This document shows, in pieces, positions 265 through 34,759 of a DNA stretch of 64,000 bases. The position numbers and the translations under genes are program-made. The stretch is from positions 2,400,001-2,464,000 of the forward strand of contig CM000151.3 of NCBI GenBank assembly GCA_000004695.1. Direction: 5' to 3'. The notes beneath the pieces were generated by a model, which saw only the letters and a program-made list of their open reading frames with translations, was not told the origin of the DNA and ran no database searches. Within the stretch, counting starts at the first letter, position 1. Every line of letters begins with the position of its first letter. Origin of the DNA: Dictyostelium discoideum. Lineage: Eukaryota.

Positions 265-682
265 ATGATCAGAAAACGAATACTATTATTAATTCTAATA
301 ATAATAGTAATATTACAAATTTTTAGGGTTGAAGGAAATCCAGCAATTCAAATTTATGATGTTTCTAGTGAAGAATACTCATATAATAAATATCCAACAA
401 ATACAAATGACAAATATTGTAATTTTTTTTTCTTAATATTTGTAACCGATACTTCAGATACTGGAGTTCAATTAAAAATAAAAACCAACGATTCAGACGC
501 AACAATTTCAACACCAGCATTTAAAAATATTTCAAGTCAAGTTCTTCCAATTTATGTAAATACTAAATCACCAAATGATTATTCATTATTAATTACGGCA
601 GAATATGATAATGATACATCAATTTATAGTAGTATTATAATTAATTATTCTTGTCAATGTTTGTATTGATTATTTTTTTAAG

Positions 683-741
<59 letters not shown>

Positions 742-3700
742 AAATAAATAATTAATTAAATAATTAAATAAATTAAATAGATATTCCACGAGAATCAATG
801 AAAATAAATTTATATCATACTGGTAAATATAAGCATCCAATTTACCCATTTTCAACAATAATGTACATTACAGGATTAAAATACCCATTGGGTCAATTAC
901 AAGTTGACAAACCGTATAATGTAAAAGTTGATAATATAAGGCCATTTGTCTATCATATTGGTGACGAATTTAATGGATTTATTAAACCAGATTTTAATAT
1001 ATCACTATGGTTCATGGATAGTTCAAATAATACTTATTCATTAAATTATACAATTCCAAGTTTAATTTATTCAAGTAAGTAATTATTGTTATTATTATTA
1101 TTGTTTTTATTATTATTATTATTTTAAAAATTAATATATTAAATTATAATTTTAAAAATTCAGATTCAAATGTAAAAGAAAAGGATATTACATTTAAAAT
1201 TTATCCTAATCAAACAAATGTTATAGAATTTGGATTTATTTGTCCACCAATTTATTCTATTACATTAAATGAAACAATTGGATTAAGCGACCCATTGTTT
1301 ATTAATGAAAATATAGGTTTAAATCCATGGGCATCTTATGAAATGCCAGGAAAAGGTACAACATTCCTTGGTCAAGTTTCTTCCGATTATTCAATTGGTG
1401 CTCAAATTAATGGCACCTTAACTACAATTTATTATCAATTTTTAAAGGTCTCATGTAAGTTTATTATTATTATTATTATTTTTTTTTATTATTGTTTATT
1501 TTTATTATTTTAAAAAATCATTTTTGTTAATAATTTTAATAATATTATTATTATTGTTTTTTAAATATATAGATAATATTGATAGAAAATTTCCATCTTT
1601 TCAAATTGATTATTCACCACCATTACCTTCACTTTCATCAATATTTTCAATTAAATTTAATTCAACTAAAAAATTTGATTTATTCAATTATTCAATTAGA
1701 TGGTTTGAAAGTTTTTCAAATAGTTATAAATGGCCTTTTGGTTTCGAAAGTGGTCATAATTCAAATTATTCATTCAAGTCATCATTTCTACAATCTGAAA
1801 TCTCTGTAAATCCCTACAACTCACTTTATTTCAATCAAGATCATTCTTTAACGCAAATTAGTAATCAACAAGGTAATTGTTTTTTTTTATTTTTTATTAT
1901 TATTTAATAAAATTATTATATTAATTAAAATAATTTTATTATAAATAATAGTTGTGGATATAAATACATTACCAATATTAGAATTAGAATCATTTAATTC
2001 TACTCATTTATATAATCAAGTTTATTTATTTAAGATTAAAATAAAACCAATTTATCAAAGTAAAGGGTACAGTACTTTTATTAAAATTAATGATAATGTT
2101 AATCAAGTATTAAGATATGACTCAATGCCTGATATCGAAAACAATATATATGAAACTGTTTTAAATTTTCATGAAGGTATATTAAATAGTTTAAATATTG
2201 GTGATTCTTATTCAAGACAATCTCAATTTTATAATCCATTTCAATATTATTCAATTGATCCACTTTTAAAACTTGATTTTAAATATTCTGATATGATTTC
2301 AGTTTTAATTGGTAATGTAACTTATTTAATAAATAACATTGATGTAACAAATAAATCAGTTGATAATATAATTTATTTCAATTATAATGGTACTCAAGAA
2401 CCTAAAGATGATACAATTAATTTCTCATTTTTAATTTTATCTCATGAGTTTAAAGTAACTGGAGTCGTAGATTATGATAATATTACAACTTCAATTTGGA
2501 ATTCAACAATTTCAAAATATCAAATTAAATTTACAGTTCCTGCAAATACTAGACCTGGTCCACTTGGTTTTGCTTTACTTTGTGGTTATTCAAGTTCATT
2601 AATAAGTGATTTCTTACCTTTATCTTCTCAATTAATTATTGAATCTAAACATTTCGATGAATATGGACCAATATTTAGTAATATTGAAAAAGTTAATTCA
2701 ACAAATGAATTTGGTTGGAAATTTACAATAGATGATCCAATTAATGGTTTTGATTATGCTGATATTATAGTTAGAGGTGAAATGGATAGTTCAACTTATA
2801 AATTCCATTTAACAACTCAAAATTTAACAAGAGGTGATAAATTTAATGGTGATTATCAAATTAATATAACTTTACCAAGTAAATGTGCATCTCAAAATTA
2901 TATTATCACACAAGTTAAATTATATGATACTCAAGGTTATTTAGGTGAATTTTCAGTATCCAGTGGATTTAATGGTATTAGAAATGTATTTATAAATTAT
3001 TTATCAGATCCAACAATAAATAAAGTATATAAAACATGTAGTGGTGAAAATGATGGTATCGATAGTTCACCACCAATTTTAACTTCATTCATACCAATAT
3101 TAAAACAAAATAGTGATGGTACTCAATACTTATCATTCAACTTTGAAGCAGTAGATATTGAAAGTGGTTTAAAAGATAAACAATATCCAATTGTTTATAT
3201 CCAAACAACAGATTTAAGAACACTTGAATGTGTATCATCTATTATTTCAATAAATGAAACAACTTCAACCTATAAATGCACTATCAATTTACCAAATGGA
3301 TTCGGATACAATTCAGATATTATTTTCAGTGTTTATGGATTCATTAATAATGGCGGTTATTATAGCGGATATTCAAGCGAATCACTAAATAGTTTATCTT
3401 TTATATATTCAATGAGCGATATATCCATAAACAAAGTAATACAAATTAATACCTGTAGCAAATTTGTATCTGGTGATAGCGAGTTATGGATAACAGGTAG
3501 AGGTTTCAATTCAACAAAACAACAAGTATATGTAAAATATTTTGGAGAACCTGGATTTAATCAAATAATAGTACCAAATAAAGTTTATTGGAGTGCAATG
3601 TTTATTAAAAATATTAAACCAACTGATAAACCATTCATTATCAAAGTTTCGGACTATCCACTCACATCAAATGAATTCACTGTTATTCCTATAGTTTATA

Positions 3701-4860
3701 ATTTTACGATTCCCTTAACACCAACAGAAACACCAACAGAAACACCAACAGAAACACCAACAGAGACACCAACACAAACACCAATACCTACATCATCACC
3801 AATACCAACGAATAAACCACAAACATGTTTAGGTGAACCAGTATGTGGTGGATCAAAACAAGGTTTTTGTTCATCAAGTGGATGTATTTGTTATCCACCT
3901 TGGATTGGTAATGATTGTAATTCACAAGTTATAATTATACCACAACCATCAACAAATACATCACAACCATCAACTGAATTACCAATTATAGAAAACAATA
4001 ATCAAACATCAAATAGTACAAATTATTTATTCAAATCATTGATTTCAATTGTATCATTAAGAGAATTAGATTTTAATTCAAATCAAGTTAATTTATATAC
4101 ATTTGATAAATGGATTTATACACCAATTAATAATATTAAAAGTCAATACTTTACAAGTATTCAAAGTGGTGATACAAAATCAACAAATACATTAACAACT
4201 AATATTACTGTAACTTTAGAATGGTTCAATCAAACGACAATCATTCAATTTGCAAATAATAATATAACAATGAATCCATCAAGTATTAAATATACAATTG
4301 AAATTACAGAATATAAATTTTTAAATCAATTAAATAGTCTTCAACTTGTAATGTCAGCATTATTCGAATCATCAAATTCCAAAGATACTTGTTCATTAAA
4401 AGAATTTGGAGATACAAGTGATGGTGATAATTCAAACTTCTTTAAAATTCAAATTGATGACCATTCACTTTATGGTAGATTCATTAAAAGAGCAATCATC
4501 GATTCAAAAGTATCTTCAATTGAAAATCAATTATTAGATTCAAAAATGAACTCAATTCAAACATCATCAGTATCACAATCATTCATTGGTATTACAATAC
4601 CAAATTATAAACAATCAATAATTATTGATCCAGACTTTTCAGTATTAGTAGATAGTAAACCAGTATCAAATAATGATAATAATTCAATTTGTACATCAAA
4701 TAAATCAAAACTAACAAGTGCTCAACTCGCTGGTATTATTATTGGTTCCGTTGCTTTTGCCACTGTAGTTATTGTATCAGTTGTTTACTTGGTCGTGAAA
4801 AACAGAAAATCAGATTTATTCCAAAGAAAAGTACAAAACAAATTACAAAAAATGAACTGA
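265..4860 (+). CDS. Tandem paralog 1 of a large type-I membrane glycoprotein family (signal peptide, NxS/T-rich ectodomain, Thr/Pro linker, EGF-like Cys module, single TM helix, short basic tail); 5 exons, ~1396 aa
   Basis: ORF-track pieces 265-669, 798-1082, 1295-1513, 1524-1907, 1954-4860 join through short AT-rich GT..AG introns. Exons are ~265-658, 781-1074, 1164-1454, 1573-1872, 1952-4860, and every junction is phase 1. Donors are gtttgt/gtaagt/gtaatt; acceptors are atag/cag/tatag. N-term MIRKRILLLILIIIVIL is a signal-like peptide. The C-term is AGIIIGSVAFATVVIVSVVYLVV followed by KNRKS. The Cys module CLGEPVCGGSKQGFCSSSGCICYPPWIGNDC is EGF-like. The junctions fit the same model in copies 2 and 3. 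Confidence 0.6.
3718..3777 (+). repeat. Coding 12-bp tandem repeat (acaccaacagaa x4, then variants) giving PTETPTETPTETPTETPTQTP in the mucin-like linker; copies 2 and 3 have only DPTPTQTP here
   Basis: The unit repeats directly in the sequence. It encodes the TETP x4 segment of ORF 1954-4860. The corresponding linker in ORFs 10638-13313 and 16065-18740 is shorter. Confidence 0.8.
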
Positions 4861-8809: not shown

Positions 8810-11800
8810 ATGATAAAGAAAATTTTATTAATAATCCTAACATTGGTGATAATAAATAGCTTTTCAACAATAAATAATTTAATAATTGGGGTTGAAGGAC
8901 AGTTTCAATTGTATGATATTACAAATCAAGAAGAAGGTGCTTATAATAGATACCCAGATTCAACAAATCAAAAAATTTGTTCATATGTTTTTTCGATTGC
9001 AATAGTTGATTACTCGAATAGTGGGGCAACTTTGAATGTTTTCACCAATGATACAGATGCAATGGTCTATCAAATCATTAGGAAAGAATATGGAGGAATT
9101 GCCACAGTTATAGTTAAAAATAAAACACCAAATACTTATACATTATTAATAAATGCAACATTGCAAAATGGTCAAAATATTTATAAGAATATCTCAATAA
9201 CTTATTCTTGTGAATGTTTGTATATAAAATTTAAAATTAAAAAAACAAAAATAAATAATTAATTAATTTCAATACCAATTTTATATAGATATCCCTCGAG
9301 AATTGATGAAGGTCAATGTTTTAACAAGTAACAATTATAAATTTACAATTAATCCTTATACAACATTAATACACTTTACAGGTTTAAAATATCAAATATC
9401 TTATCTAAATGTTTCAAGTCCTTCTTGGATAAACATAAATAATTTTTATTCAAATTTATTATATGTTAGTGTAGATTTTAATAAATATAATTTTGTACCA
9501 GAGTCTAATATATCAATACTTTTCTTGGATAGTTCAGATCAACAATATACTGTGAATATTACAATTCCTTTTTTTTATTTTTCAAGTAAGTATAATAATT
9601 AAATTTAAAAAAAAAAAAATAAGATATTAAAATTATTATTATTATAAGAAATGAATGTAGAAGAAAAGGATATTACATTCAAGATCTATCCAAACCAAAC
9701 CGATGTTACAGTACTTGGAGTTAATTGTTCACCAGTTTACTCTATTACATTAAATGAAACCATTGAATATGATCCATTATTTATTGAAGATGTTTCACGT
9801 CGTATGCCTACTCCATCATATGAAATACCAGGAAAAGGTACAACATTCATTGGTTATGTTTATACACAATATTCTATTTTCGCACAAATTAATAACTCAT
9901 TAACAACAATTTATAGTAACCCAAATTTAAATGTTTCAAGTAAGTTTTTTAAAATTAAATTCAATTACTTTTTAATATATACATATATCAAAGATTAATT
10001 TCTATTGACATTATTTAAAAAAAAATGAATAGAAAACTTTAATTTTACATTTCCAAATGTCATTGTTGAACCAGTATCATTACCTTTAATATTAAACTCA
10101 ACAATGTTTTCATTTGGGTTCACTTCAAGTTTTCAGTATGCAATTTTTCCATTTTATTTTAGATGGAATTTAGGTTTTCAATATATCTTTAGTTGGCCAT
10201 TTGGGTTTGAAAGTGGTCAAAATTCAAACTATTCTTTAAAAGTATCATTTTTAAAACCCACGTATTCGCCAAACAATTTTGGTTTATTGACCTTTAATAA
10301 TGAAAATTTTATTATTCAAATAGACAATAGTAAGTATATATACATATAATCATTAATATTCTAATATACATATATAATCATTAATATTCTAAACTACTAC
10401 TGAATAACACACACACACACCCCACACACAAACAAGTACTAACATTAAAAAATATTTTTAAAAATAGCGATAAATTCATCATTACTACCATTAGAATTAG
10501 AATCATGTAAAGTTATATACCTTTTTGAACAATTTCATTTATTAATAATTAAAATAAAACCAACATATAAAGAGATTGGTTATAATCTTTTCATTCAAAT
10601 TAATGATGATGCAAATGCAATATATAGACAAGAATCATTGGTAGATGCTGAAAATAATATATATGAAATTGTTTATGATTTTAAAGGGCGTGGATTTTCA
10701 GTTTTATCTATTGGAGATTCAACTTTTAAAAAGAGTCAAGTTTATTATGTAAATAGTTATTTTTCAATTAATCCATTTTCAGTTATAGATTATAAAGCTC
10801 CAACAATATTACCTGTTTTAATAGAAAATATTACATTTTTAAAAAATTATATTGATGTGGCAAATAAATCAGTTGATAATATAATTTATTTCAATTATAA
10901 TGGTACTCAAGCCCATAGTGATCCTTCAGCTTCATTCTCACTTTTTATTTTAAATAGTAATACCACAGAATCTAATATAGTTTTCGATAGTTTAAAGTTT
11001 GCAACTTGGAATTCAACAATTTCAAAATATCAAATTAAATTTACAGTTCTTGCAAACACTAGACCTGGTCCACTCAGTTTCTTTTTAATGTGTGGTTATC
11101 AATCTTCAATAACAAATGATATGTTTCCTTTATCATCACAACTATTTATTGTTTCTAAACATTTCGATGCGTATGGACCAATATTTAGTAATATTGAAAA
11201 AATTAATTCACCAAATGAATTTGGTTGGAAATTTACAATAGATGATCCAATTAATGGTTTTGATTATGGTGATATTATAGTGAGAGGTGAAATGGATAGT
11301 TCAACTTATAAATTCCATTTAACAACTCAAAATTTAACAAGAGGTGATAAATTTAATGGTGATTATCAAATTAATATAACTTTACCAAGTAAATGTGCAT
11401 CTCAAAATTATATTATCACACAAGTTAAATTATATGATACTCAAGGCTTTTCAGGTGAATTTTATGTAGTTGGTGAAATGGATGGTATTAAAAATGTATT
11501 TATAAATTATTTATCAGATCCAACAATAAATAAAGTATATAAAACATGTAGTGGTGAAAATGATGGTATCGATAGTTCACCACCAATTTTAACTTCATTC
11601 ATACCAATATTAAAACAAAATAGTGATGGTACTCAATACTTATCATTCAACTTTGAAGCAGTAGATATTGAAAGTGGTTTAAAAGATAAACAATATCCAG
11701 TTGTTTATATTGAAACAATAGAAGTACAAACACTTGAATGTGTATCATCTATTATTTCAATAAACGAAACAGCTGCAACCTATACATGTACTATCGATTT

Positions 11801-13313
11801 ACCAATAGGATTTGGATACAATTCAGATATTATTTTCAGTGTTTATGGATTCATTAATAATGGCGGTTATTATAGCGGATATTCAAGCGAATCACTAAAT
11901 AATTTATCTTTTATATATACAATTAATAATATAACTTTTAATAAAGTAATACAAATCACAAAATGCAGTAAATTTAATTCATTTGATAGCGAGTTATGGA
12001 TAACAGGTAGATGTTTCAATTCAACGCAACAAGTATATGTAAAATATGAAGGAGACTCAAGCTTTAATCAAATAGTACCAACTACAGTTTATTGGAGTGC
12101 AATTTTTATTAAAAATATTAAACCAACCGATAAACCATTCATTATCAAAGTTTCAGACCTACCACTCACATCAAATGAATTCACTGTCAATCCAATAGTT
12201 TATAATTTTATAGATCCAACACCAACACAAACACCAATACCTACATCATCACCAATGCCAACGAATAAACCACAAACATGTTTAGGTGAACCAGTATGTG
12301 GTGGATCAAAACAAGGTTTTTGTTCATCAAGTGGATGTATTTGTTATCCACCTTGGATTGGTAATGATTGTAATTCACAAGTTATAATTATACCACAACC
12401 ATCAACAAATACATCACAACCATCAACTGAATTACCAATTATCGATAACAATAATCAAACATCAAATAGTACAAATTATTTATTCAAATCATTGATTTCA
12501 ATTGTATCATTAAGAGAATTAGATTTTAATTCAAATCAAGTTAATTTATATACATTTGATAAATGGATTTATACACCAATTAATAATATTAAAAGTCAAT
12601 ACTTTACAAGTATTCAAAGTGGTGATACAAAATCAACAAATACATTAACAACCAATATTACTGTAACTTTAGAATGGTTCAATCAAACGACAATTATTCA
12701 ATTCGCAAATAATAATATAACAATGAATCCATCAAGTATTAAATATACAATTGAAATTACAGAATATAAATTTTTAAAACAATTAAATAGTCTTCAACTT
12801 GTAATGTCAGCATTATTCGAATCATCAACTTCCAAAGATACTTGTTCATTAAAAGTATTTGGAGATACAAGCGATGGTGATAATTCAAACTTCTTTAAAA
12901 TTCAAATTGATGATCATTCACTTTATGGTAGATTCATTAAAAGAGCAATCATCGATTCAAAAGTGTCTTCAATTGAAAATCAATTATTAGATTCAAAAAT
13001 GAACTCAATTCAAACATCATCAGTATCACAATCATTCATTGGTATTACAATACCAAACTATAAACAATCAATAATTATTGATCCAGACTTTTCAGTATTA
13101 GTAGATAGTAAACCAGTATCAAATAATGATAATAATTCAATTTGTACATCAAATAAATCAAAACTAACAAGTGCTCAACTCGCTGGTATTATTATTGGTT
13201 CTATTGCTTTTGCCACTGTAGTTATTGTATCAGTTGTTTACTTGGTTGTGAAAAACAGAAAATCAAAAAAATTCCAAAGAAAAGTACAAAAGAAATTACA
13301 AACAATTAACTGA
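8810..13313 (+). CDS. Tandem paralog 2 of the type-I membrane glycoprotein family; 5 exons, ~1378 aa
   Basis: Exons ~8810-9215, 9289-9585, 9649-9939, 10033-10329, 10468-13313, all phase-1 junctions (gtttgt/gtaagt donors, atag/taag/aatag acceptors). Exon lengths are 406, 297, 291, 297 and 2846 nt, giving an unbroken frame. ORF track: 8810-9262, 9303-9602, 9651-9998, 10104-10349, 10638-13313. Signal MIKKILLIILTLVIINS. TM AGIIIGSIAFATVVIVSVVYLVV. Confidence 0.65.
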
Positions 13314-14214: not shown

Positions 14215-14635
14215 ATGATAAAGAAAATTTTATTGATAATCCTAACATTGGCGATAATAAATAGCTTTTCAACAATAAATAATTTAATAATTGGGGTTGA
14301 AGGACAGTTTCAATTGTATGATATTACAAATCAAGAAGAAGGTGCTTATAATAGATACCCAGATTCAACAAATCAAAAAATTTGTTCATATGTTTTTTCG
14401 ATTGCAATAGTTGATTACTCGAATAGTGGAACAAATTTGATGGTTTTCACCAATGACACAGATGCAACAGTCTCTCTAATCAATAAGAAAGAATATGGAG
14501 GAATTGCCACAGTTATAGTTAAAAATAAAACACCAAATACTTATACATTATTAATAAATGCAACATTGCAAAATGATCAAATTATTTATAAAAATATCTC
14601 AATAACTTATTCTTGTGAATGTTTGTATATAAAAC

Positions 14636-14680
<45 letters not shown>

Positions 14681-15037
14681 AAAAAAAAAAAAAAAATAAT
14701 TAACTTTAATATCAATTTTATAGATATCCCTCGAGAATTGATGAAGGTCAATGTTTTAACAAGTAACAATTATAAATTTACACTTTTTCCTTATACAGCA
14801 ACAATACACTTTGCAGGTTTAAAATATCCACTAAATTTGCTAAATGTTTCAAGTCCTTCAAATGTTGCAATGAGCTTAGAGGGATATTCAAATTTATTCT
14901 TTGTTGGTGTAGGATTTGATAAAAATAATTTAATATCAGAGTTTAATATATCAATAAGATTCTTGGATAGTTCAGATCAACAATATACTGTAAATATTAC
15001 AATTCCTTTTTTATATTTTTCAAGTAAGTATAATAAT

Positions 15038-15068
<31 letters not shown>

Positions 15069-18000
15069 GATATTAAAATTATTATTATTTTAAGAAATGA
15101 ATGTAGAAGAAAAGGATATTACATTTAAGATCTACCCAAACCAAACTGATGTTAAAGAATTTGGAATTAATTGTTCACCAGTTTACTCTATTACATTAAA
15201 TGAAACCATTGAATATGATCCATTATTTATTGAAGATATTACAAATAATATTCCAACTCCATCATATGAAATACCAGGAAAAGGTACAACATTCATTGGC
15301 CAAGTTCATACACAATATTCTATTTTCGCAAAAATTAATAACTCATTAACAACAATTTATAGTGATCCAAATTTAAATGTTTTTAGTAAGTTTGTTAAAA
15401 TTAAATTTAATTACTTTTTAATATATACATATATCAAAGATTAATTTCTATTGACATTATTTTAATTTTTTTTTTTAAAAAAATGAATAGATAATTTTAA
15501 TTTTACATTTCCAAATGTCATTGTTGAACCAATATCAGTACCTTTAACATTAAACTCAACAATGTTTTCATTTGGATTCAATTCAAATACCCAGTATGAA
15601 ACATTTTCATTTTATTTTAGATGGAATTTAGGTTTTCAATATATCTTTAGTTGGCCATTTGGGTTTGAAAGTGGTCAAAATTCAAACTATTCTTTAAAAG
15701 CATCATTTTTAAAACCCACATATTCGCCAAACAATTTTGGTTTATTGACCTTTAATAATCGAAATTTAAATATTCAAATAGACAATAGTAAGTATATACA
15801 CATATAAAATCATTAATATTCTAAACTACTACCGAACAACACACACACACTCAAAACAATTACTAACATTAAAAAATATTTTTAAATATAGCAATAAATT
15901 CATCATTACTACCATTAGAATTAGAATCATGTAAAGTTATATACCTTTTTGAACAATTTCATTTATTAAGAATTAAAATAAAACCAACATATAAAGAGAT
16001 TGGTTATAATCTTTTCATTCAAATTAATGATGATGATGCAAATGGAATATATAGACAAGAATCATTGGTAGATGCTGAAAATAATATATATGAAATTGTT
16101 TATGATTTTAAAGGGCGTGGTTTTCAATTTTTATCTATTGGAGATTCAACTTTTAAAAAGAGTCAAGTTTATTATTTAAATAGTTATTTTTCAATTAATC
16201 CATTTTCAGTTATAGATTATAAAGCTCCAACAATATTACCTGTTTTAATAGAAAATATTACATTTTTAAAAAATTATATTGATGTGGCAAATAAATCAGT
16301 TGATAATATAATTTATTTCAATTATAATGGTACTCAAACCCATAGTAATCCTTCAGCTTCATTCTCACTTTTTATTTTAAATAGTAATACCACAGATTCT
16401 AATATAGATTTCAATAGTTTAAAGTTTGCAACTTGGAATTCAACAATTTCAAAATATCAAATTAAATTTACAGTTCTTGCAAACACTAGACCTGGTCCAC
16501 TCAGTTTCTTTTTATGGTGTGGTTTTCGAGCAATAACAAATGATATGTTTCCTTTATCATCACAACTAATAGTTGTTTCTAAACATTTCGATGAATATGG
16601 ACCAATATTTAGTAATATTGAAAAGGTTAATTCAACAAATGAATTTGGTTGGAAATTTACAATAGATGATCCAATTAATGGTTTTGATTATGGTGATATT
16701 ATAGTGAGAGGTGAAATGGATAGTTCAACTTATAAATTCCATTTAACAACTCAAAATTTAACAAGAGGTGATAAATTTAATGGTGATTATCAAATTAATA
16801 TAACTTTACCAAGTAAATGCGCATCTCAAAATTATATTATCACACAAGTTAAATTATATGATACTCAAGGTTATTCAGGTGAATTTTCAGTAGTTAATGG
16901 AATAGATGGTATTAAAAATGTATTTATAAATTATTTATCAGATCCAACAATAAATAAAGTATATAAAACATGTAGTGGTGAAAATGATGGTATCGATAGT
17001 TCACCACCAATTTTAACTTCATTCATACCAATATTAAGACAAAATAGTGATGGTACTCAATATTTATTATTCAACTTTGAAGCAGTAGATATTGAAAGTG
17101 GTTTAAAAGATAAACAATATCCAATTGTTTACATTCAAACAATAGAAGCACAAACACTTGAATGTGTATCATCTATTATTTCAATAAACGAAACAGCTGC
17201 AACCTATACATGTACCATCAATTTACCAATAGGATTTGGATACAATTCAGATATTATTTTCAGTGTTTATGGATTCATTAATAATGGCGGTTATTATAGC
17301 GGATATTCAAGCGAATCACTAAATAATTTATCTTTTATATATACAATTAATAATATAGCTTTTAATAAAGTAATACAAATCACAAAATGCAGTAAATTTA
17401 ATTCATTTGATAGCGAGTTATGGATAACAGGTAGATGTTTCAATTCAACGCAACAAGTATATGTAAAATATGAAGGAGACTCAAGCTTTAATCAAATAAT
17501 AGTACCAACTACAGTTTATTGGAGTGCAATGTTTATTAAAAATATTAAACCAACTGATAAACCATTCATTATCAAAGTTTCAGACCTACCACTCACATCA
17601 AATGAATTCACTGTCAATCCAATAGTTTATAATTTTATAGATCCAACACCAACACAAACACCAATACCTACATCATCACCAATACCAACGAATAAACCAC
17701 AAACATGTTTAGGTGAACCAGTATGTGGTGGATCAAAACAAGGTTTTTGTTCGCCAAGTGGATGTATTTGTTATCCACCTTGGATTGGTAATGATTGTAA
17801 TTCACAAGTTATAATTATACCACAACCATCAACAAATACATCACAGCCATCAACTGAATTACCAATTATCGATAACAATAATCAAACATCAAATAGTACA
17901 AATTATTTATTCAAATCATTGATTTCAATTGTATCATTAAGAGAATTAGATTTTAATTCGAATCAAGTTAATTTATATACATTTGATAAATGGATTTATA

Positions 18001-18740
18001 CACCAATTAATAATATTAAAAGTCAATACTTTACAAGTATCCAAAGTGGTGATACAAAATCAACAAATCCATTAATAACTAATATTACTGTAACTTTAGA
18101 ATGGTTCAATCAAACAAAAATCATTCAATTCGCAAATAATAATATAACAATGAATCCATCAAGTATTAAATATACAATTGAAATTACAGAATATAAATTT
18201 TTAAATCAATTAAATAGTCTTCAACTTGTAATGTCAGCATTATTCGAATCATCAACTTCCAAAGATACTTGTTCATTAAAAGAATTTGGAGATACAAGCG
18301 ATGGTGATAATTCAAACTTCTTTAAAATTCAAATTGATGACCATTCACTTTATGGTAGATTCATTAAAAGAGCAATCATCGATTCAAAAGTATCTTCAAT
18401 TGAAAATCAATTATTAGATTCAAAAATGAACTCAGTTCAAACATCATCAGTATCACAATCATTCATTGGTATTACAATACCAAACTATAAACAATCAATA
18501 ATTATTGATCCAGACTTTTCAGTATTAGTAGATAGTAAACCAGTATCAAATAATGATAATAATTCAATTTGTACATCAAATAAATCAAAACTAACAAGTG
18601 CTCAACTCGCTGGTATTATTATTGGTTCCGTTGCTTTTGCCACTGTAGTTATTGTATCAGTTGTTTACTTGGTTGTGAAAAACAAAAAATCGGTTTTGTT
18701 CCAAAGAAAAGTACAAAACAAATTACAAAAAATGAACTGA
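14215..18740 (+). CDS. Tandem paralog 3 of the type-I membrane glycoprotein family; 5 exons, ~1379 aa; near-identical to paralog 2
   Basis: Exons ~14215-14620, 14724-15023, 15095-15385, 15491-15787, 15892-18740, all phase 1. The real ATG is at 14215 (MIKKILLIILTLAIINS); ORF 14125 begins upstream in poly-K/F. ORF track: 14738-15040, 15097-15444, 15562-15807, 16065-18740. Confidence 0.65.
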
Positions 18741-20796: not shown

Positions 20797-23296
20797 ATGA
20801 ATAAAAATTTTGTTTTGTATTTATTTTATTTTATTTTTTTAAATTATTGTAATAGTCAATCATTGAACATAACAGATATTTCAGAAGCAAATTCGTATAT
20901 AGTATATCCTGATTCATCAAATTCACAAACTTGTTCTTTTAATTTTAAATTTTTTATCCAAACTGTTAATATAATAAATTATTCTGGAAGTTCATTTTCA
21001 TTTTTATTATCTAAATCTTTTGTTTTGGATACATCATCATTTATAACTAAAGATGGTCATGCATATGCATCTTTTAATGGTTTAAATTTGCCATTAGGAA
21101 ATGATAGTCTAATATTAACATCAACTTATGAAAATTCAGATGGTATTAAAATTCAACAAAATTATTCAATATCTTATAAATGTGAATGTTTGTATTTGCC
21201 CCATTAAATTAATTAATTTAATATTTTAAAAAATTATTTAAATTGCTAATTTTTTTTTTTAAAAGTAATTGAATTTAATTCTTTGGGTTATAAGGTTTTA
21301 TTAACAAATAATTTTAAAAAATCTAAATCAGGAATGAATGGAATTATTCAATTTACAGGATTAAAAAATAAACTAAAATCATTAAGTTCGAGTGGGGGAA
21401 TTTTCAATGTCAAACCAACATTTCCAAATAGTTTTTCATTTTCTGATTATCAATTTCAAAATTTAACAAAAGAAAATATAATTTCACTTTTATTTAATAA
21501 TGGTAATAATATTACAGTAAAATTTCCATCATCATTTAGTTCATGTAGGTATTTTTTTTTTATTTTTTTTTGAACTTGCACTTTTCATTTTTTTTTTTTA
21601 TTTTTTTATTTTTTTTTATTTAAAAATTTCAAAAAATAATTAATCCTCGTTTAATTTTATTATTTTTTAGATTATAATGTTGATGAAAGCAATTCAAAAG
21701 TTGTAATTTATCCAAGTGAAAGCACAAATATAATTGAATATGGATATGACAATTCTCCACTTTATTCAGTTACAATAAATAAAACCAGTGTTGATTATGA
21801 ACCTTATATTCAAGTTAATAATGGGTTTAGCAACTATTCTCAAATAACACCAATATATCAAAATGACAAAACTGTAACATATTTAGGTCAACTTATTAAT
21901 TCAGCACCTTCAAAATTATCAATTTATTCAGAGTTTAATAATTCTTTAATAAAAATCTATGAAACACCAATTTTAAATATTACAAGTAAGTATTTTAAAA
22001 TATATCTTTATAAATGAATTTTAATAGTAATGATAATAATTTTTATTATTATAATTTTATTTAGAATTTAGTAAAGAACCTTTTGTTCCAAATCCATTTA
22101 TTGTTACATACTTTAATAGTGATGGTATTTTTTTATTAAATTCATCAATGTTTACAATTACCACATCAAATCAATTTAATTTCTTAACAACAACCTATTC
22201 ATTTGGTTTATTCACAAAAGATTTTCAATGGCCATTTGGTTTTGGAAGTGGTAATAATTTTAATTATAATGTATCCGCTTCATTTTTGAGATACAAGGCT
22301 CTCATTAGTTCACCAAAAGTTTTTACTGTTGATAAAACAAATCTAATCAACATTAATTCAAATATAAGTATGTATATAATTTATTATAAATAAATTTAAA
22401 ATAATAATTAATAATAATAATATTTAAATTTTTTAATATTAATATATATTTTTATTATATTATTATTATTATTATCATTAAAACATAAACTGTTTTTTTT
22501 TTAAAAAAAAAAAAAAAATTATAGTTGCACCAACTGTAAATGCACCAATTCTTTTAAAATTTGAATGGGTTCATTTATTTTCAGGAAATTATTTATTAAA
22601 ATTTAGGGTAAAAGATAATGGATATGAAGCATTTGTTGGTATTGGTGATGTCAATACAATTGCATTAAGATATGAATCAATGATAGATAGTGAAAGTATA
22701 GGTGATGAAATTGTATTTGCAGCAGTTATAGATACATACAGATATCCAATTGACAAATTTATTGTATTCGATAGATTGGGACAAACAGAAACATATTCAA
22801 TCGGTCAATATTATTCAGTTAATCCACTTTTAAAAATTGATTCATTTTATGAAAATAATAATAAAAATAATAATAATAATAATAACTTATTACTTATTAA
22901 TAATATTACATTTTTTAATAATTTTATCGATATAATAAATAAATCAGTTGATAATGTAGTTTATTTTACATATAATGGAGGTAGAATGGATAATGATGAA
23001 AAACCAATTGGATTTATGTTAATGGACGTAGTTACATTAGTAAAGAATAGTAAATACCATTTCAACAGTTCAACACTATACTTTTCAACTTGGAATTCAA
23101 CAATATCAATGTATCAAATTAAATTTAAAATACCTGCAAATACCCAACCTGGTCATATTCCATATAGATTCTTTATCAACTCTTATTCAACACCTTTAGA
23201 TAGTGAATTCTTACCATCATCTGCACAACTATATGTAACATTATCAAGTAAGTATCTATAATATAGGTATAAATACAATTTATCAATAGTTTTCAA

Positions 23297-23378
<82 letters not shown>

Positions 23379-25625
23379 GAATCTACAGATTTCGATGGAT
23401 ATGGACCAATATTTAGTAATATTGAAAAGGTTAATTCAACAAATGAATTTGGTTGGAAATTTACAATAGATGATCCAATTAATGGTTTTGATTATGCTGA
23501 TATTATAGTTAGAGGTGAAATGGATAGTTCAACTTATAAATTCCATTTAACAACTCAAAATTTAACAAGAGGTGATAAATTTAATGGTGATTATCAAATT
23601 AATATAACTTTACCAAGTAAATGTGCATCTCAAAATTATATTATCACACAAGTTAAATTATATGATACTCAAGGTATTGGTTGCTACTTTTCAGTATCTG
23701 AATCATTTGTAGGTGGTGGTGTTAATAACCCATTTATAAATTATTTATTAGACTCAACAATAAATAAATTATATAAAAAGTGTAGTGGTGAAAATGATGG
23801 TATCGATAGTTCACCACCAATTTTAACATTATTTACACCACAAGTAGCTATTCCTGCAGATGGACATATGGAAGTATATTTCTCATTTGAAGCAACTGAT
23901 TACGAAAGTGGATTAAAAGATCTTCAATATCCAATGGTTTACGTTGAAGCAATTGAATTTCAAATATTTGAATGTGAAACAATTATTAAATCAAAGAATA
24001 TCACCTCTGCAACCTATCAATGTTACGTTTACTTACCAAGAGGTGTATTGTACACTTCAGAAATTACATTCAGTGTTTATGGATTAATTAATAATGGTGG
24101 TTGTTATGGTGGTTATTCAAGCGACTCACTAAGAATTCTATTCCCGTATAAGTTTTCAATGAAAGCAGTATCATCAGGACTTGCTAAAAGGTTAGATATC
24201 TATAGAGTTTCTCAAATTACAACAAGTGGTGGCGAATTATGGATAATAGGTGCTGGTTTCTTTTCTTCAAATCTTGTAGTATTAATTAAATATTATGGTG
24301 AATCAACATTTACACAAACATCAATACCAACTATAAGTTATCCAAATGCAATGTTAATCAATGATGTCAAACCAACTGATAAACCATTCATTATCAAAGT
24401 ACAAGAAGCTTTCTTTTCAAATGAATTCACTGTTTATCCATTAGTATTTGATATTCGTTTTGTACCACCAATTCCAACAGAATTACCAACAGAATCCCCA
24501 ACACCAAATCCATCATCATCATCTTCTTCAATAGACTCGTCATCGTCAACACCTACATCATCACCAATACCAACGAATAAACCTCAAACATGTTTAGGTG
24601 AACCATTATGTGGTGGATCAAAACAAGGATATTGTTCATCAAGTGGATGTGTTTGTTATCCACCTTGGATTGGTAATGATTGTAATTCACAAGTTATAAT
24701 TATACCACAACCATCAACAAATACATCACAACCATCAACTGAATTACCAATTATCGATAACAATAATCAAACATCAAATAGTACAAATTATTTATTCAAA
24801 TCATTGATTTCAATTGTATCATTAAGAGAATTAGATTTTAATTCAAATTAAGTTAATTTATATACATTTGATAAATGGATTTATACACCAATTAATAATA
24901 TTAAAAGTCAATACTTTACAAGTATTCAAAGTGGTGATACAAAATCAACAAATACATTAACAACCAATATTACTGTAACTTTAGAATGGTTCAATCAAAC
25001 AACAATCATTCAATTTGCAAATAATAATATAACAATGAATCCATCAAGTATTAAATATACAATTGAAATTACAGAATATAAATTTTTAAATCAATTAAAT
25101 AGTCTTCAACTTGTAATGTCAGCATTATTCGAATCATCAACTTCCAAAGATACTTGTTCATTAAAAGTATTTGGAGATACAAGCGATGGTGATAATTCAA
25201 ACTTCTTTAAAATTCAAATTGATGATCATTCACTTTATGGTAGATTCATTAAAAGAGCAATCATCGATTCAAAAGTATCTTCAATTGAAAATCAATTATT
25301 AGATTCAAAAATGAACTCAATTCAAACATCATCAATATCACAATCATTCATTGGTATTACAATACCAAATTATAAACAATCAATAATTATTGATCCAGAC
25401 TTTTCAGTATTAGTAGATAGTAAACCAGTATCAAATAATGATAATAATTCAATTTGTACATCAAATAAATCAAAACTAACAAGTTCTCAACTCGCTGGTA
25501 TTATTATTGGTTCCGTTGCTTTTGCTGCTGTCGTTGTTGTTGCAGCTTCTTATTTTATTATAAAAAAGTGGAAAGACGATAAATTTGTAAAAACATTTAA
25601 TAGAAAATTAAAAAAACTATCATAA
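20797..25625 (+). pseudogene. Divergent paralog 4 of the membrane glycoprotein family; 6 exons, including an extra intron absent from copies 1-3; the open frame is interrupted by a single in-frame TAA at 24849-24851 upstream of the TM helix
   Basis: Exons ~20797-21187, 21266-21544, 21671-21985, 22065-22367, 22525-23247, 23389-25625. The junctions are phase 1 and the lengths fit a continuous frame. ORF track: 20797-21207, 21283-21573, 22148-22393, 22680-23261, 23520-24851, 25035-25625, with the last two in the same frame. aattcaaatTaagtt aligns to aattcaaatCaagtt (Q, NSNQVNLYTF) in copies 1-3. The tail is AGIIIGSVAFAAVVVVAASYFIIKKWKDDKF... Confidence 0.55.
23248..23388 (+). other. Paralog-specific intron (gtaagt...(att)n...tctacag) inside what is continuous exon 5 in copies 1-3
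   Basis: Copy 4 reads ...QLYVTLS | NFDGYGPIFSNIEKVNSTNEF. Copies 1-3 read ...QLIIESKHFDEYGPIFSNIEKVNSTNEF without a break. The donor is ttatcaa|gtaagt and the acceptor is tctacag|atttcgat. The intron contains an (ATT)~29 microsatellite at 23293-23378. Confidence 0.6.

Positions 25626-29906: not shown

Positions 29907-34759
<4,853 letters not shown>

Follow-up and report, generated by a model that had tools for sequence, protein, structure and literature searches.

Why do two members of a tandem array of closely related genes carry an intron at a codon through which the other three read without a break? The question arises in a 64,000-nucleotide (nt) stretch of Dictyostelium discoideum chromosome 2 (GenBank assembly GCA_000004695.1, contig CM000151.3, positions 2,400,001 to 2,464,000 of the forward strand; hereafter the window), which has a G+C content of about 22%. 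The window holds five tandem genes of the ComC family, here called copies 1 to 5, each coding for a protein of about 1,380 residues (Table 1). A sequence-only reading of the window had noted that exon 5 is interrupted in copies 4 and 5, and had offered two histories for the difference, intron loss in the lineage of copies 1-3 or intron gain in that of copies 4 and 5. We find that the first of these is very probably correct: judging from the distribution of the intron among related genes, the common ancestor of copies 1-3 lost an ancient intron in a single event, and copies 4 and 5 keep the old intron.

Copies 4 and 5 share an intron position

The array proteins contain the Pfam domains DUF7035, DUF7034, DUF7949 and ComC_SSD (the ComC supersandwich domain), with E-values between 2e-37 and 1e-14, each match exceeding its gathering cut-off. 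Their 64 homologues are exclusively dictyostelid, and are named either 'EGF-like domain-containing protein' or 'hypothetical protein'. With this domain set, the array genes belong to the ComC-like EGF-like-domain protein family of dictyostelids. Three proteins of D. discoideum AX4 chromosome 2, XP_644341.1 (P0004), XP_645075.2 (P0066) and XP_644336.1 (P0010), map codon-for-codon onto the window, which represents the XP_645075.2 version with F at residue 12. The motif (F/Y)D.YGPIFSNIEK, found once per copy (at 2665, 11175, 16599 and 23403 on the plus strand and at 32111 on the minus strand), marks the exon 5 segment at issue. Copies 1-3 run uninterrupted through the site, as the sequence-only reading had it, with the residues IIESKHFDE in copy 1, FIVSKHFDA in copy 2 and IVVSKHFDE in copy 3. 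In copy 1, the first residue matched by DUF7035 is number 234 of the open reading frame that begins at 1954, which corresponds to nt 2653.

Copies 4 and 5 are interrupted at the identical codon, also as first read, and both interruptions are in phase 1, splitting an Asn codon (A/AT). In copy 4 the junction is TTA TCA A/gtaagt...ctacag/AT TTC GAT GGA, and the exon after the acceptor reads ATTTCGATGGA; in copy 5 it is TCA GAA A/gtaagt...atttag/AT TAT GAT GGA, and the exon continues as ATTATGATGGA. The residue preceding the split codon is S in copy 4 and E in copy 5, so that an S at the split, first proposed for both, holds for copy 4 alone. The limits given earlier for the copy 4 intron, 23248-23388, were exact, both by direct reading and by the mapping of XP_645075.2; those given for copy 5, 32304-32127, had the correct start and an end that was off by one (the intron ends at 32126 and measures 179 nt).

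Both interruptions have a GT donor (GTAAGT, which is the Dictyostelium donor consensus) and an AG acceptor, as is usual for U2-type introns, and an A+T content of 91% (copy 4) or 94% (copy 5), as compared to 74% for the coding sequence of copy 4. Retention would bring an in-frame TAA into copy 4 and, by direct reading, a stop after 8 codons together with a frameshift into copy 5. The reference GenBank models XP_645075.2 and XP_644336.1 already use exactly these splice sites. By their sequence, then, we take the interruptions to be conventional, already annotated GT-AG spliceosomal introns.

It could be argued that these are not introns at all, and that copies 4 and 5 are pseudogenes into which AT-rich microsatellites were inserted, by coincidence at one codon; an in-frame nonsense codon is indeed present in another part of copy 4 (24849-24851). 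However, the insertions have canonical gtaagt...ag ends and the same phase and position as introns in nine other mapped genes of the family (see below). Moreover, copy 5 shows no other disruption, the flanking exons are open and conserved in both genes, and removal of the interruption restores exactly the QL-x6-FD spacing that is conserved family-wide. That the interruptions are anything other than introns is scarcely conceivable, and the intron itself lends no support to the idea that its retention makes pseudogenes of copies 4 and 5. P0069, a Logan contig of the copy 5 cluster and the sole Logan hit, enters the intron and ends at the in-intron stop; it is unspliced genomic sequence, and was ruled out as transcript evidence.

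The intron is ancient and was very probably lost in copies 1-3

Annotated proteins from eleven related loci were mapped back to DNA with an exact splice mapper, giving 17 gene models, and the intron positions were placed on a MAFFT protein alignment. All of the introns but one are in phase 1; the exception, 45 nt long and in phase 2, lies right at the beginning of P0060 from D. purpureum. They occupy seven alignment columns (175, 312, ~435, ~568, 716, 859 and 1671), or roughly one per module of 100 residues. The site under study is column 859, exactly where the DUF7035 match has its first residue.

A phase-1 intron is found at column 859 in 11 of the 17 mapped genes, from five species. Besides copies 4 and 5, these are P0013, P0026, P0031, P0057 and P0058 of D. 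discoideum, P0012 of D. citrinum, P0022 of D. firmibasis, P0023 of D. dimigraforme and P0060 of D. purpureum, the last being about 30% identical to copy 1. In the other genes the intron is 70-104 nt long; thus, its position and phase are conserved while its length and sequence vary. The intron is absent from copies 1-3, from the copy 2 orthologue P0006, from P0038 of D. discoideum and from P0045 of D. purpureum, and is likewise missing from three other tandem D. purpureum genes at the P0045 locus. The D. citrinum array shows the same pattern: its genes 1 and 2 read through the site, and its gene 3 is interrupted there by the intron. Lineages of the family have lost different single introns: that at column 568 is missing in P0023, P0038 and P0060, that at column 716 in copies 1-5, P0012, P0013, P0022 and P0023, and that at column 859 in three separate lineages.

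Neighbour-joining trees with bootstrap were computed separately for the parts of the protein upstream and downstream of the site. In both trees, copies 1-3 and P0006 form a clade with 100% bootstrap, nested among intron-bearing genes. This nesting, together with the presence of the column 859 intron in outgroup genes, argues for loss. A comparison with D. purpureum and D. firmibasis, suggested at the outset as a means to polarise the change, points the same way, since P0060 and P0022 have the intron at the same column. Since the orthologues of copies 1 and 2 in D. citrinum are likewise intronless at the site, the loss would predate the separation of that species from D. discoideum.

Intron gain in the ancestor of copies 4 and 5, with copies 1-3 in the original state, could have come about by intronisation of an (ATT)n array expanded from Ile-Ile codons. 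Two features of copy 4 would suit such an origin: its (ATT)n array is in frame with the downstream exon, where it would read as poly-Ile, and the tail of its intron reads IIESTD, which resembles the IIESKH of copy 1. Nine other mapped genes, however, including the distant P0060, have an intron in the same column and phase, and in the trees copies 4 and 5 do not form a group of their own apart from the other genes with the intron. Furthermore, copy 5, P0012, P0013 and others have unrelated intron sequences without (ATT)n. Since the intron is present in outgroups, gain by intronisation was rejected as extremely improbable.

Three observations weigh against loss in the copy 1-3 ancestor. The precise sister group of copies 1-3 is weakly supported (38-59%), gene conversion blurs the C-terminal tree, and the four tandem D. 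purpureum genes and P0038, all of them intronless, leave room for a very deep gain. These last genes do not affect the polarity within copies 1-5. Rather, because they too lack the intron, loss is recurrent, with at least two further independent losses of the column 859 intron elsewhere in the family.

At the junction, the alignment near column 859 is free of gaps, that is, the intron was removed without an insertion or deletion. The Asn codon (A/AT) is intact in several intronless relatives, which read FIVSKN (P0007 and P0009, and also D. citrinum gene 2). On the history that we favour, the intron would be one of the ancient phase-1 introns that separate exons encoding domains of about 100 residues, and would lie at the N-terminal edge of DUF7035. 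It would have existed before the divergence of D. discoideum and D. purpureum, and its exact excision in the common ancestor of copies 1-3 would have left the coding sequence uninterrupted. As to how it was excised, which we infer, the classical candidate would be recombination with a spliced cDNA.

A mechanism mediated by reverse transcriptase, raised as a possibility in the sequence-only reading, would be compatible with the exact, indel-free removal. The model of precise intron loss through cDNA and reverse transcriptase reportedly goes back to Fink in 1987 and has been taken up in later surveys; it predicts a 3' bias, or the co-loss of adjacent introns. Copies 1-3 lack the two 3'-most of six N-terminal introns, yet one of these, at column 716, had already gone in a broader clade, and other members of the family have lost internal introns one at a time. 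The family-wide losses are thus not strictly 3'-biased, and lend the cDNA model no special support here.

A tract of near-identity begins at the intron site

Over the 700 nt upstream of the site, the five copies are 40-75% identical; immediately downstream, the identity is 94-100%. In the 300 nt upstream, copy 4 is 67.5% identical to copy 1 and 82.1% identical to its D. citrinum orthologue, whereas in the 300 nt downstream the figures are 98.3% and 89.6%, respectively. The edges of the near-identical tract are the intron site and position +287 (Table 1). That paralogues exceed orthologues in identity downstream of the site, and do so within a sharp-edged segment, argues for concerted evolution by ectopic gene conversion, with one edge of the tract at the intron site. 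Following the loss, ectopic gene conversion would have homogenised the 287 nt downstream of the site across the five copies, leaving them almost identical there, while the exon upstream remained divergent, and the conversion tract would stop at the intron site.

Exon 5 is a mosaic in all five copies, in which sharp-edged blocks of 95-100% identity alternate with blocks of 35-75%. Examples are 2651-2937 and ~3900-4800 in copy 1, and 23389-23675 and ~24600-25550 in copy 4. In the first block, the paralogues within the species are closer to one another than are the D. discoideum and D. citrinum orthologues. The mosaic points to gene conversion that is still going on, next to hypervariable segments at the N-terminus and in the middle of the protein.

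The copy 4 intron ends in exon-like sequence

The last 16 nt of the copy 4 intron resemble the last 16 nt of copy 1 before the site. The sequence-only reading had extended this likeness at the acceptor to copies 1-3 together. The match holds for copy 1 (14/16) and is specific to it, since by a hand count on the alignment the tail matches the exon of copy 2 at about 11/16 positions and that of copy 3 at fewer. Among the 3' ends of 73 other introns of the family, the best match is 9/16, and not one of 5,931 intronic 16-mers reaches 13/16. Thus, the 14/16 match is beyond chance, and chance as its source was rejected on this empirical null. For an acceptor region, moreover, the G+C content of the tail is unusually high.

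One explanation for the match is an imprecise loss, in which a genomic deletion displaced upstream by 16 nt took out the final 16 nt of the upstream exon, together with the whole intron except its own final 16 nt, and exonised this tail, so that ATTATTGAATCTAAAC in copy 1 would be a relic of the intron. We weighed this possibility seriously, owing to the 14/16 match. It would leave the length of the protein unchanged, and both genes have D. citrinum orthologues with related motifs, so the similarity predates the separation of the two species. On the other hand, the FIVSKN that is likely to be ancestral (copy 2, D. citrinum gene 2, P0007-P0009) resembles the exon ends FIISSN of P0013 and FIKSSN of P0012, and it keeps the split Asn codon A/AT, whereas an exonised tail would give g/AT, or Asp. 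The IIE state of copy 1 is derived within the intronless clade, and a deletion of the length of the intron but displaced by 16 nt is improbable in itself. The FIVSKN state and the Asn codon both disfavour an offset deletion, and we consider it unlikely.

In what appears to be the simplest reading, copy 4 and the copy 1 lineage underwent an exchange that slightly overran the acceptor and ended at the ATT ATT codons that abut the (ATT)n array. In the history outlined above, the conversion tract in copy 4 may thus have leaked about 16 nt across the acceptor, making the intron tail resemble the exon of copy 1. Stated in full, the last 13-16 nt of the copy 4 intron may be exon sequence exchanged with the copy 1 lineage through a tract that crossed the acceptor and was resolved at the ATT-ATT microhomology, next to the (ATT)n array or seeding it. 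Two points weigh against such a leak. The D. citrinum orthologues carry weaker versions of the motifs, with attgatc on the intron side and ATTATTGAGTC on the exon side, and the acceptor AG must have been kept or restored (AAAC versus ACAG). We advance the exchange tentatively, at somewhat less than even odds. Were it true, the tail would be the trace, left in nature, of a paralogue-mediated intron erasure that was broken off, and the presence/absence difference of the intron would act as a barrier that fixes the edge of the conversion tract.

In copy 4 of strain ACTFIR (L007, 12160-12606), the exon base before the donor is G and not A, which gives Asp in place of Asn, and the intron tail reads attatttaatctacag, with T for G. 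Because ACTFIR differs at both places, D. discoideum is polymorphic for the split codon as well as for the exon-like patch. In D. cf. discoideum, examined at the P0008 locus with a view to dating the patch, the contig stops short of the copy 4 orthologue.

The microsatellites in the two introns are unrelated

Both introns were first described as mostly (ATT)n/(AAT)n microsatellite. Perfect arrays do make up 58% of the copy 4 intron and 57% of the copy 5 intron, but their motifs are complementary rather than homologous: in gene sense, copy 4 has (ATT)n and copy 5 has (AAT)n, at different places within the introns. A single ancestral microsatellite common to the two introns was rejected, since the arrays lie on opposite sense strands and at different positions, and most of the orthologous introns have no such array. 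In strain ACTFIR, the copy 4 intron measures 188 nt, compared to 141 nt in AX4, and its (ATT) array is longer.

AT-rich trinucleotide microsatellites in non-coding DNA are a genome-wide property of Dictyostelium, as the report on the AX4 genome is said to have described. Perfect AAT/ATT arrays with 8 or more units number nine in the 64-kb window; one of them, a second perfect array of 34 units, lies at 33839-33940, within another intron of copy 5 (intron 2, 33963-33816). The intronic arrays of copies 4 and 5, perfect and of different length between strains, have no feature that would distinguish them from others in this genome. We regard the two arrays as unremarkable, that is, as independent, strain-variable and ordinary for its non-coding DNA.

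Copy 4 probably has a nonsense codon further downstream

XP_645075.2 includes a sixth annotated 'intron' at 24781-24852, of 72 nt and 82% A+T. Save for one or two bases, the segment is the same as coding sequence in the other four copies (Table 1). The key base turns CAA (Gln) into TAA at 24849-24851, 1.46 kb downstream of intron 5. Both of the AX4 duplicates, and strain ACTFIT, have the same model with a 72-nt intron. From its sequence, copy 4 probably has a real nonsense mutation, making it a pseudogene or the source of a truncated product, which gene prediction has bypassed by means of a fake intron. The gene model of copy 4 is probably wrong.

Comparison with known cases

Paralogue-specific, precise intron loss is well known, and the intron studied here was already part of the AX4 annotation; in this respect the locus is an ordinary case. 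In the literature we found nothing specific to the introns of this ComC-like family. As in other precise losses from duplicated genes, the removal is exact and free of insertions or deletions, it concerns one clade of paralogues, outgroups keep the intron, and the other introns are untouched. Unlike in the cDNA-mediated model, there is no trace of the mechanism, and losses in the family hit internal introns singly, without 3' bias or co-loss. With the polarity as found here, we take the question of gain versus loss to be settled as loss.

Genes built by exon shuffling from Ig, EGF and FN3 domains have symmetric '1-1' exons, with phase-1 introns at the domain boundaries. Like such genes for modular extracellular proteins, the ComC-like genes have phase-1 introns about 100 residues apart, one of which, the present one, lies at the start of DUF7035; unlike in those genes, the domains are dictyostelid-specific and of unknown function. 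The ancestral structure of the family would thus have had one phase-1 intron per domain boundary, followed by repeated independent losses.

As in the concerted evolution of other tandem arrays, the segment downstream of the site is closer between paralogues (98%) than between orthologues (90%), and it has sharp edges, one of them at the intron heterology. The locus is a tidy example of an intron presence/absence difference that coincides with the edge of a conversion tract. In contrast to textbook conversion tracts, 16 nt of sequence of the exon type seem to have spilled into the copy 4 intron, at its 3' end. An exon-like intron tail at the edge of a tract is a small curiosity for the study of concerted evolution.

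Positions of the features and surroundings of the array

Table 1. The five array genes and the features of exon 5 discussed in the text, in window positions.
Feature	Position	Strand	Description	Basis
Copy 1 gene	265-4860	+	5 exons: 265-658, 781-1074, 1164-1454, 1573-1872, 1952-4857 plus stop	Model from P0001 as guide and splice sites; Pfam domains
Copy 2 gene	8810-13313	+	5 exons; 1,378 residues, stop-free	Exon boundaries carried over from copy 3
Copy 3 gene (XP_644341.1)	14215-18740	+	5 exons	P0004 maps exactly
Copy 4 gene (XP_645075.2)	20797-25625	+	6 real exons; 7th annotated owing to a doubtful 72-nt intron	P0066 maps exactly
Copy 5 gene (XP_644336.1)	34759-29907	-	6 exons	P0010 maps exactly
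Intronless homologous site, copy 1	2650/2651	+	AAAC/ATTTCG; at first residue of Pfam DUF7035 match	
Intronless homologous site, copy 2	11160/11161	+		Uninterrupted reading
Intronless homologous site, copy 3 (XP_644341.1)	16584/16585	+		P0004 maps exactly with 5 exons
Copy 4 intron 5	23248-23388	+	141 nt, gtaagt...ctacag, phase 1, 91% A+T	Direct reading; XP_645075.2 (P0066) maps with the same intron
Copy 5 intron 5	32304-32126	-	179 nt, gtaagt...atttag, phase 1, 94% A+T	Direct reading; XP_644336.1 (P0010) maps exactly
Exon-like patch, 3' end of copy 4 intron	23373-23388	+	attattgaatctacag versus ATTATTGAATCTAAAC in copy 1 exon, 2635-2650	14/16 identical
Homogenised tract, putatively gene-converted	23389-23675	+	287 nt, then abrupt divergence	2 mismatches to copy 1, 2651-2937
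Perfect (ATT)27 array, copy 4 intron	23297-23378	+	Period 3, 27.3 copies, 100% matches	TRF
Perfect (AAT)34 array in gene sense, copy 5 intron	32186-32287	-	Period 3, 34 copies, 100% matches	TRF
Coding counterparts of 24781-24852	4016-4087, 12469-12540, 17896-17967, 30751-30680			

The mapped genes each have two AX4 GenBank protein records (for example EAL70414/EAL71159 and EAL70411/EAL71088), as would be expected if the window lies within the large segment that is duplicated on AX4 chromosome 2. Between two members of the array in D. cf. discoideum there is a gene for a DDE_Tnp_4 transposase (L011, 6822-9446). Small genes with a Dicty_CAD domain adjoin array members in D. citrinum and in strain ACTFIR (L001/L007); those of ACTFIR sit between the copy 2/3-like and the copy 4-like genes.

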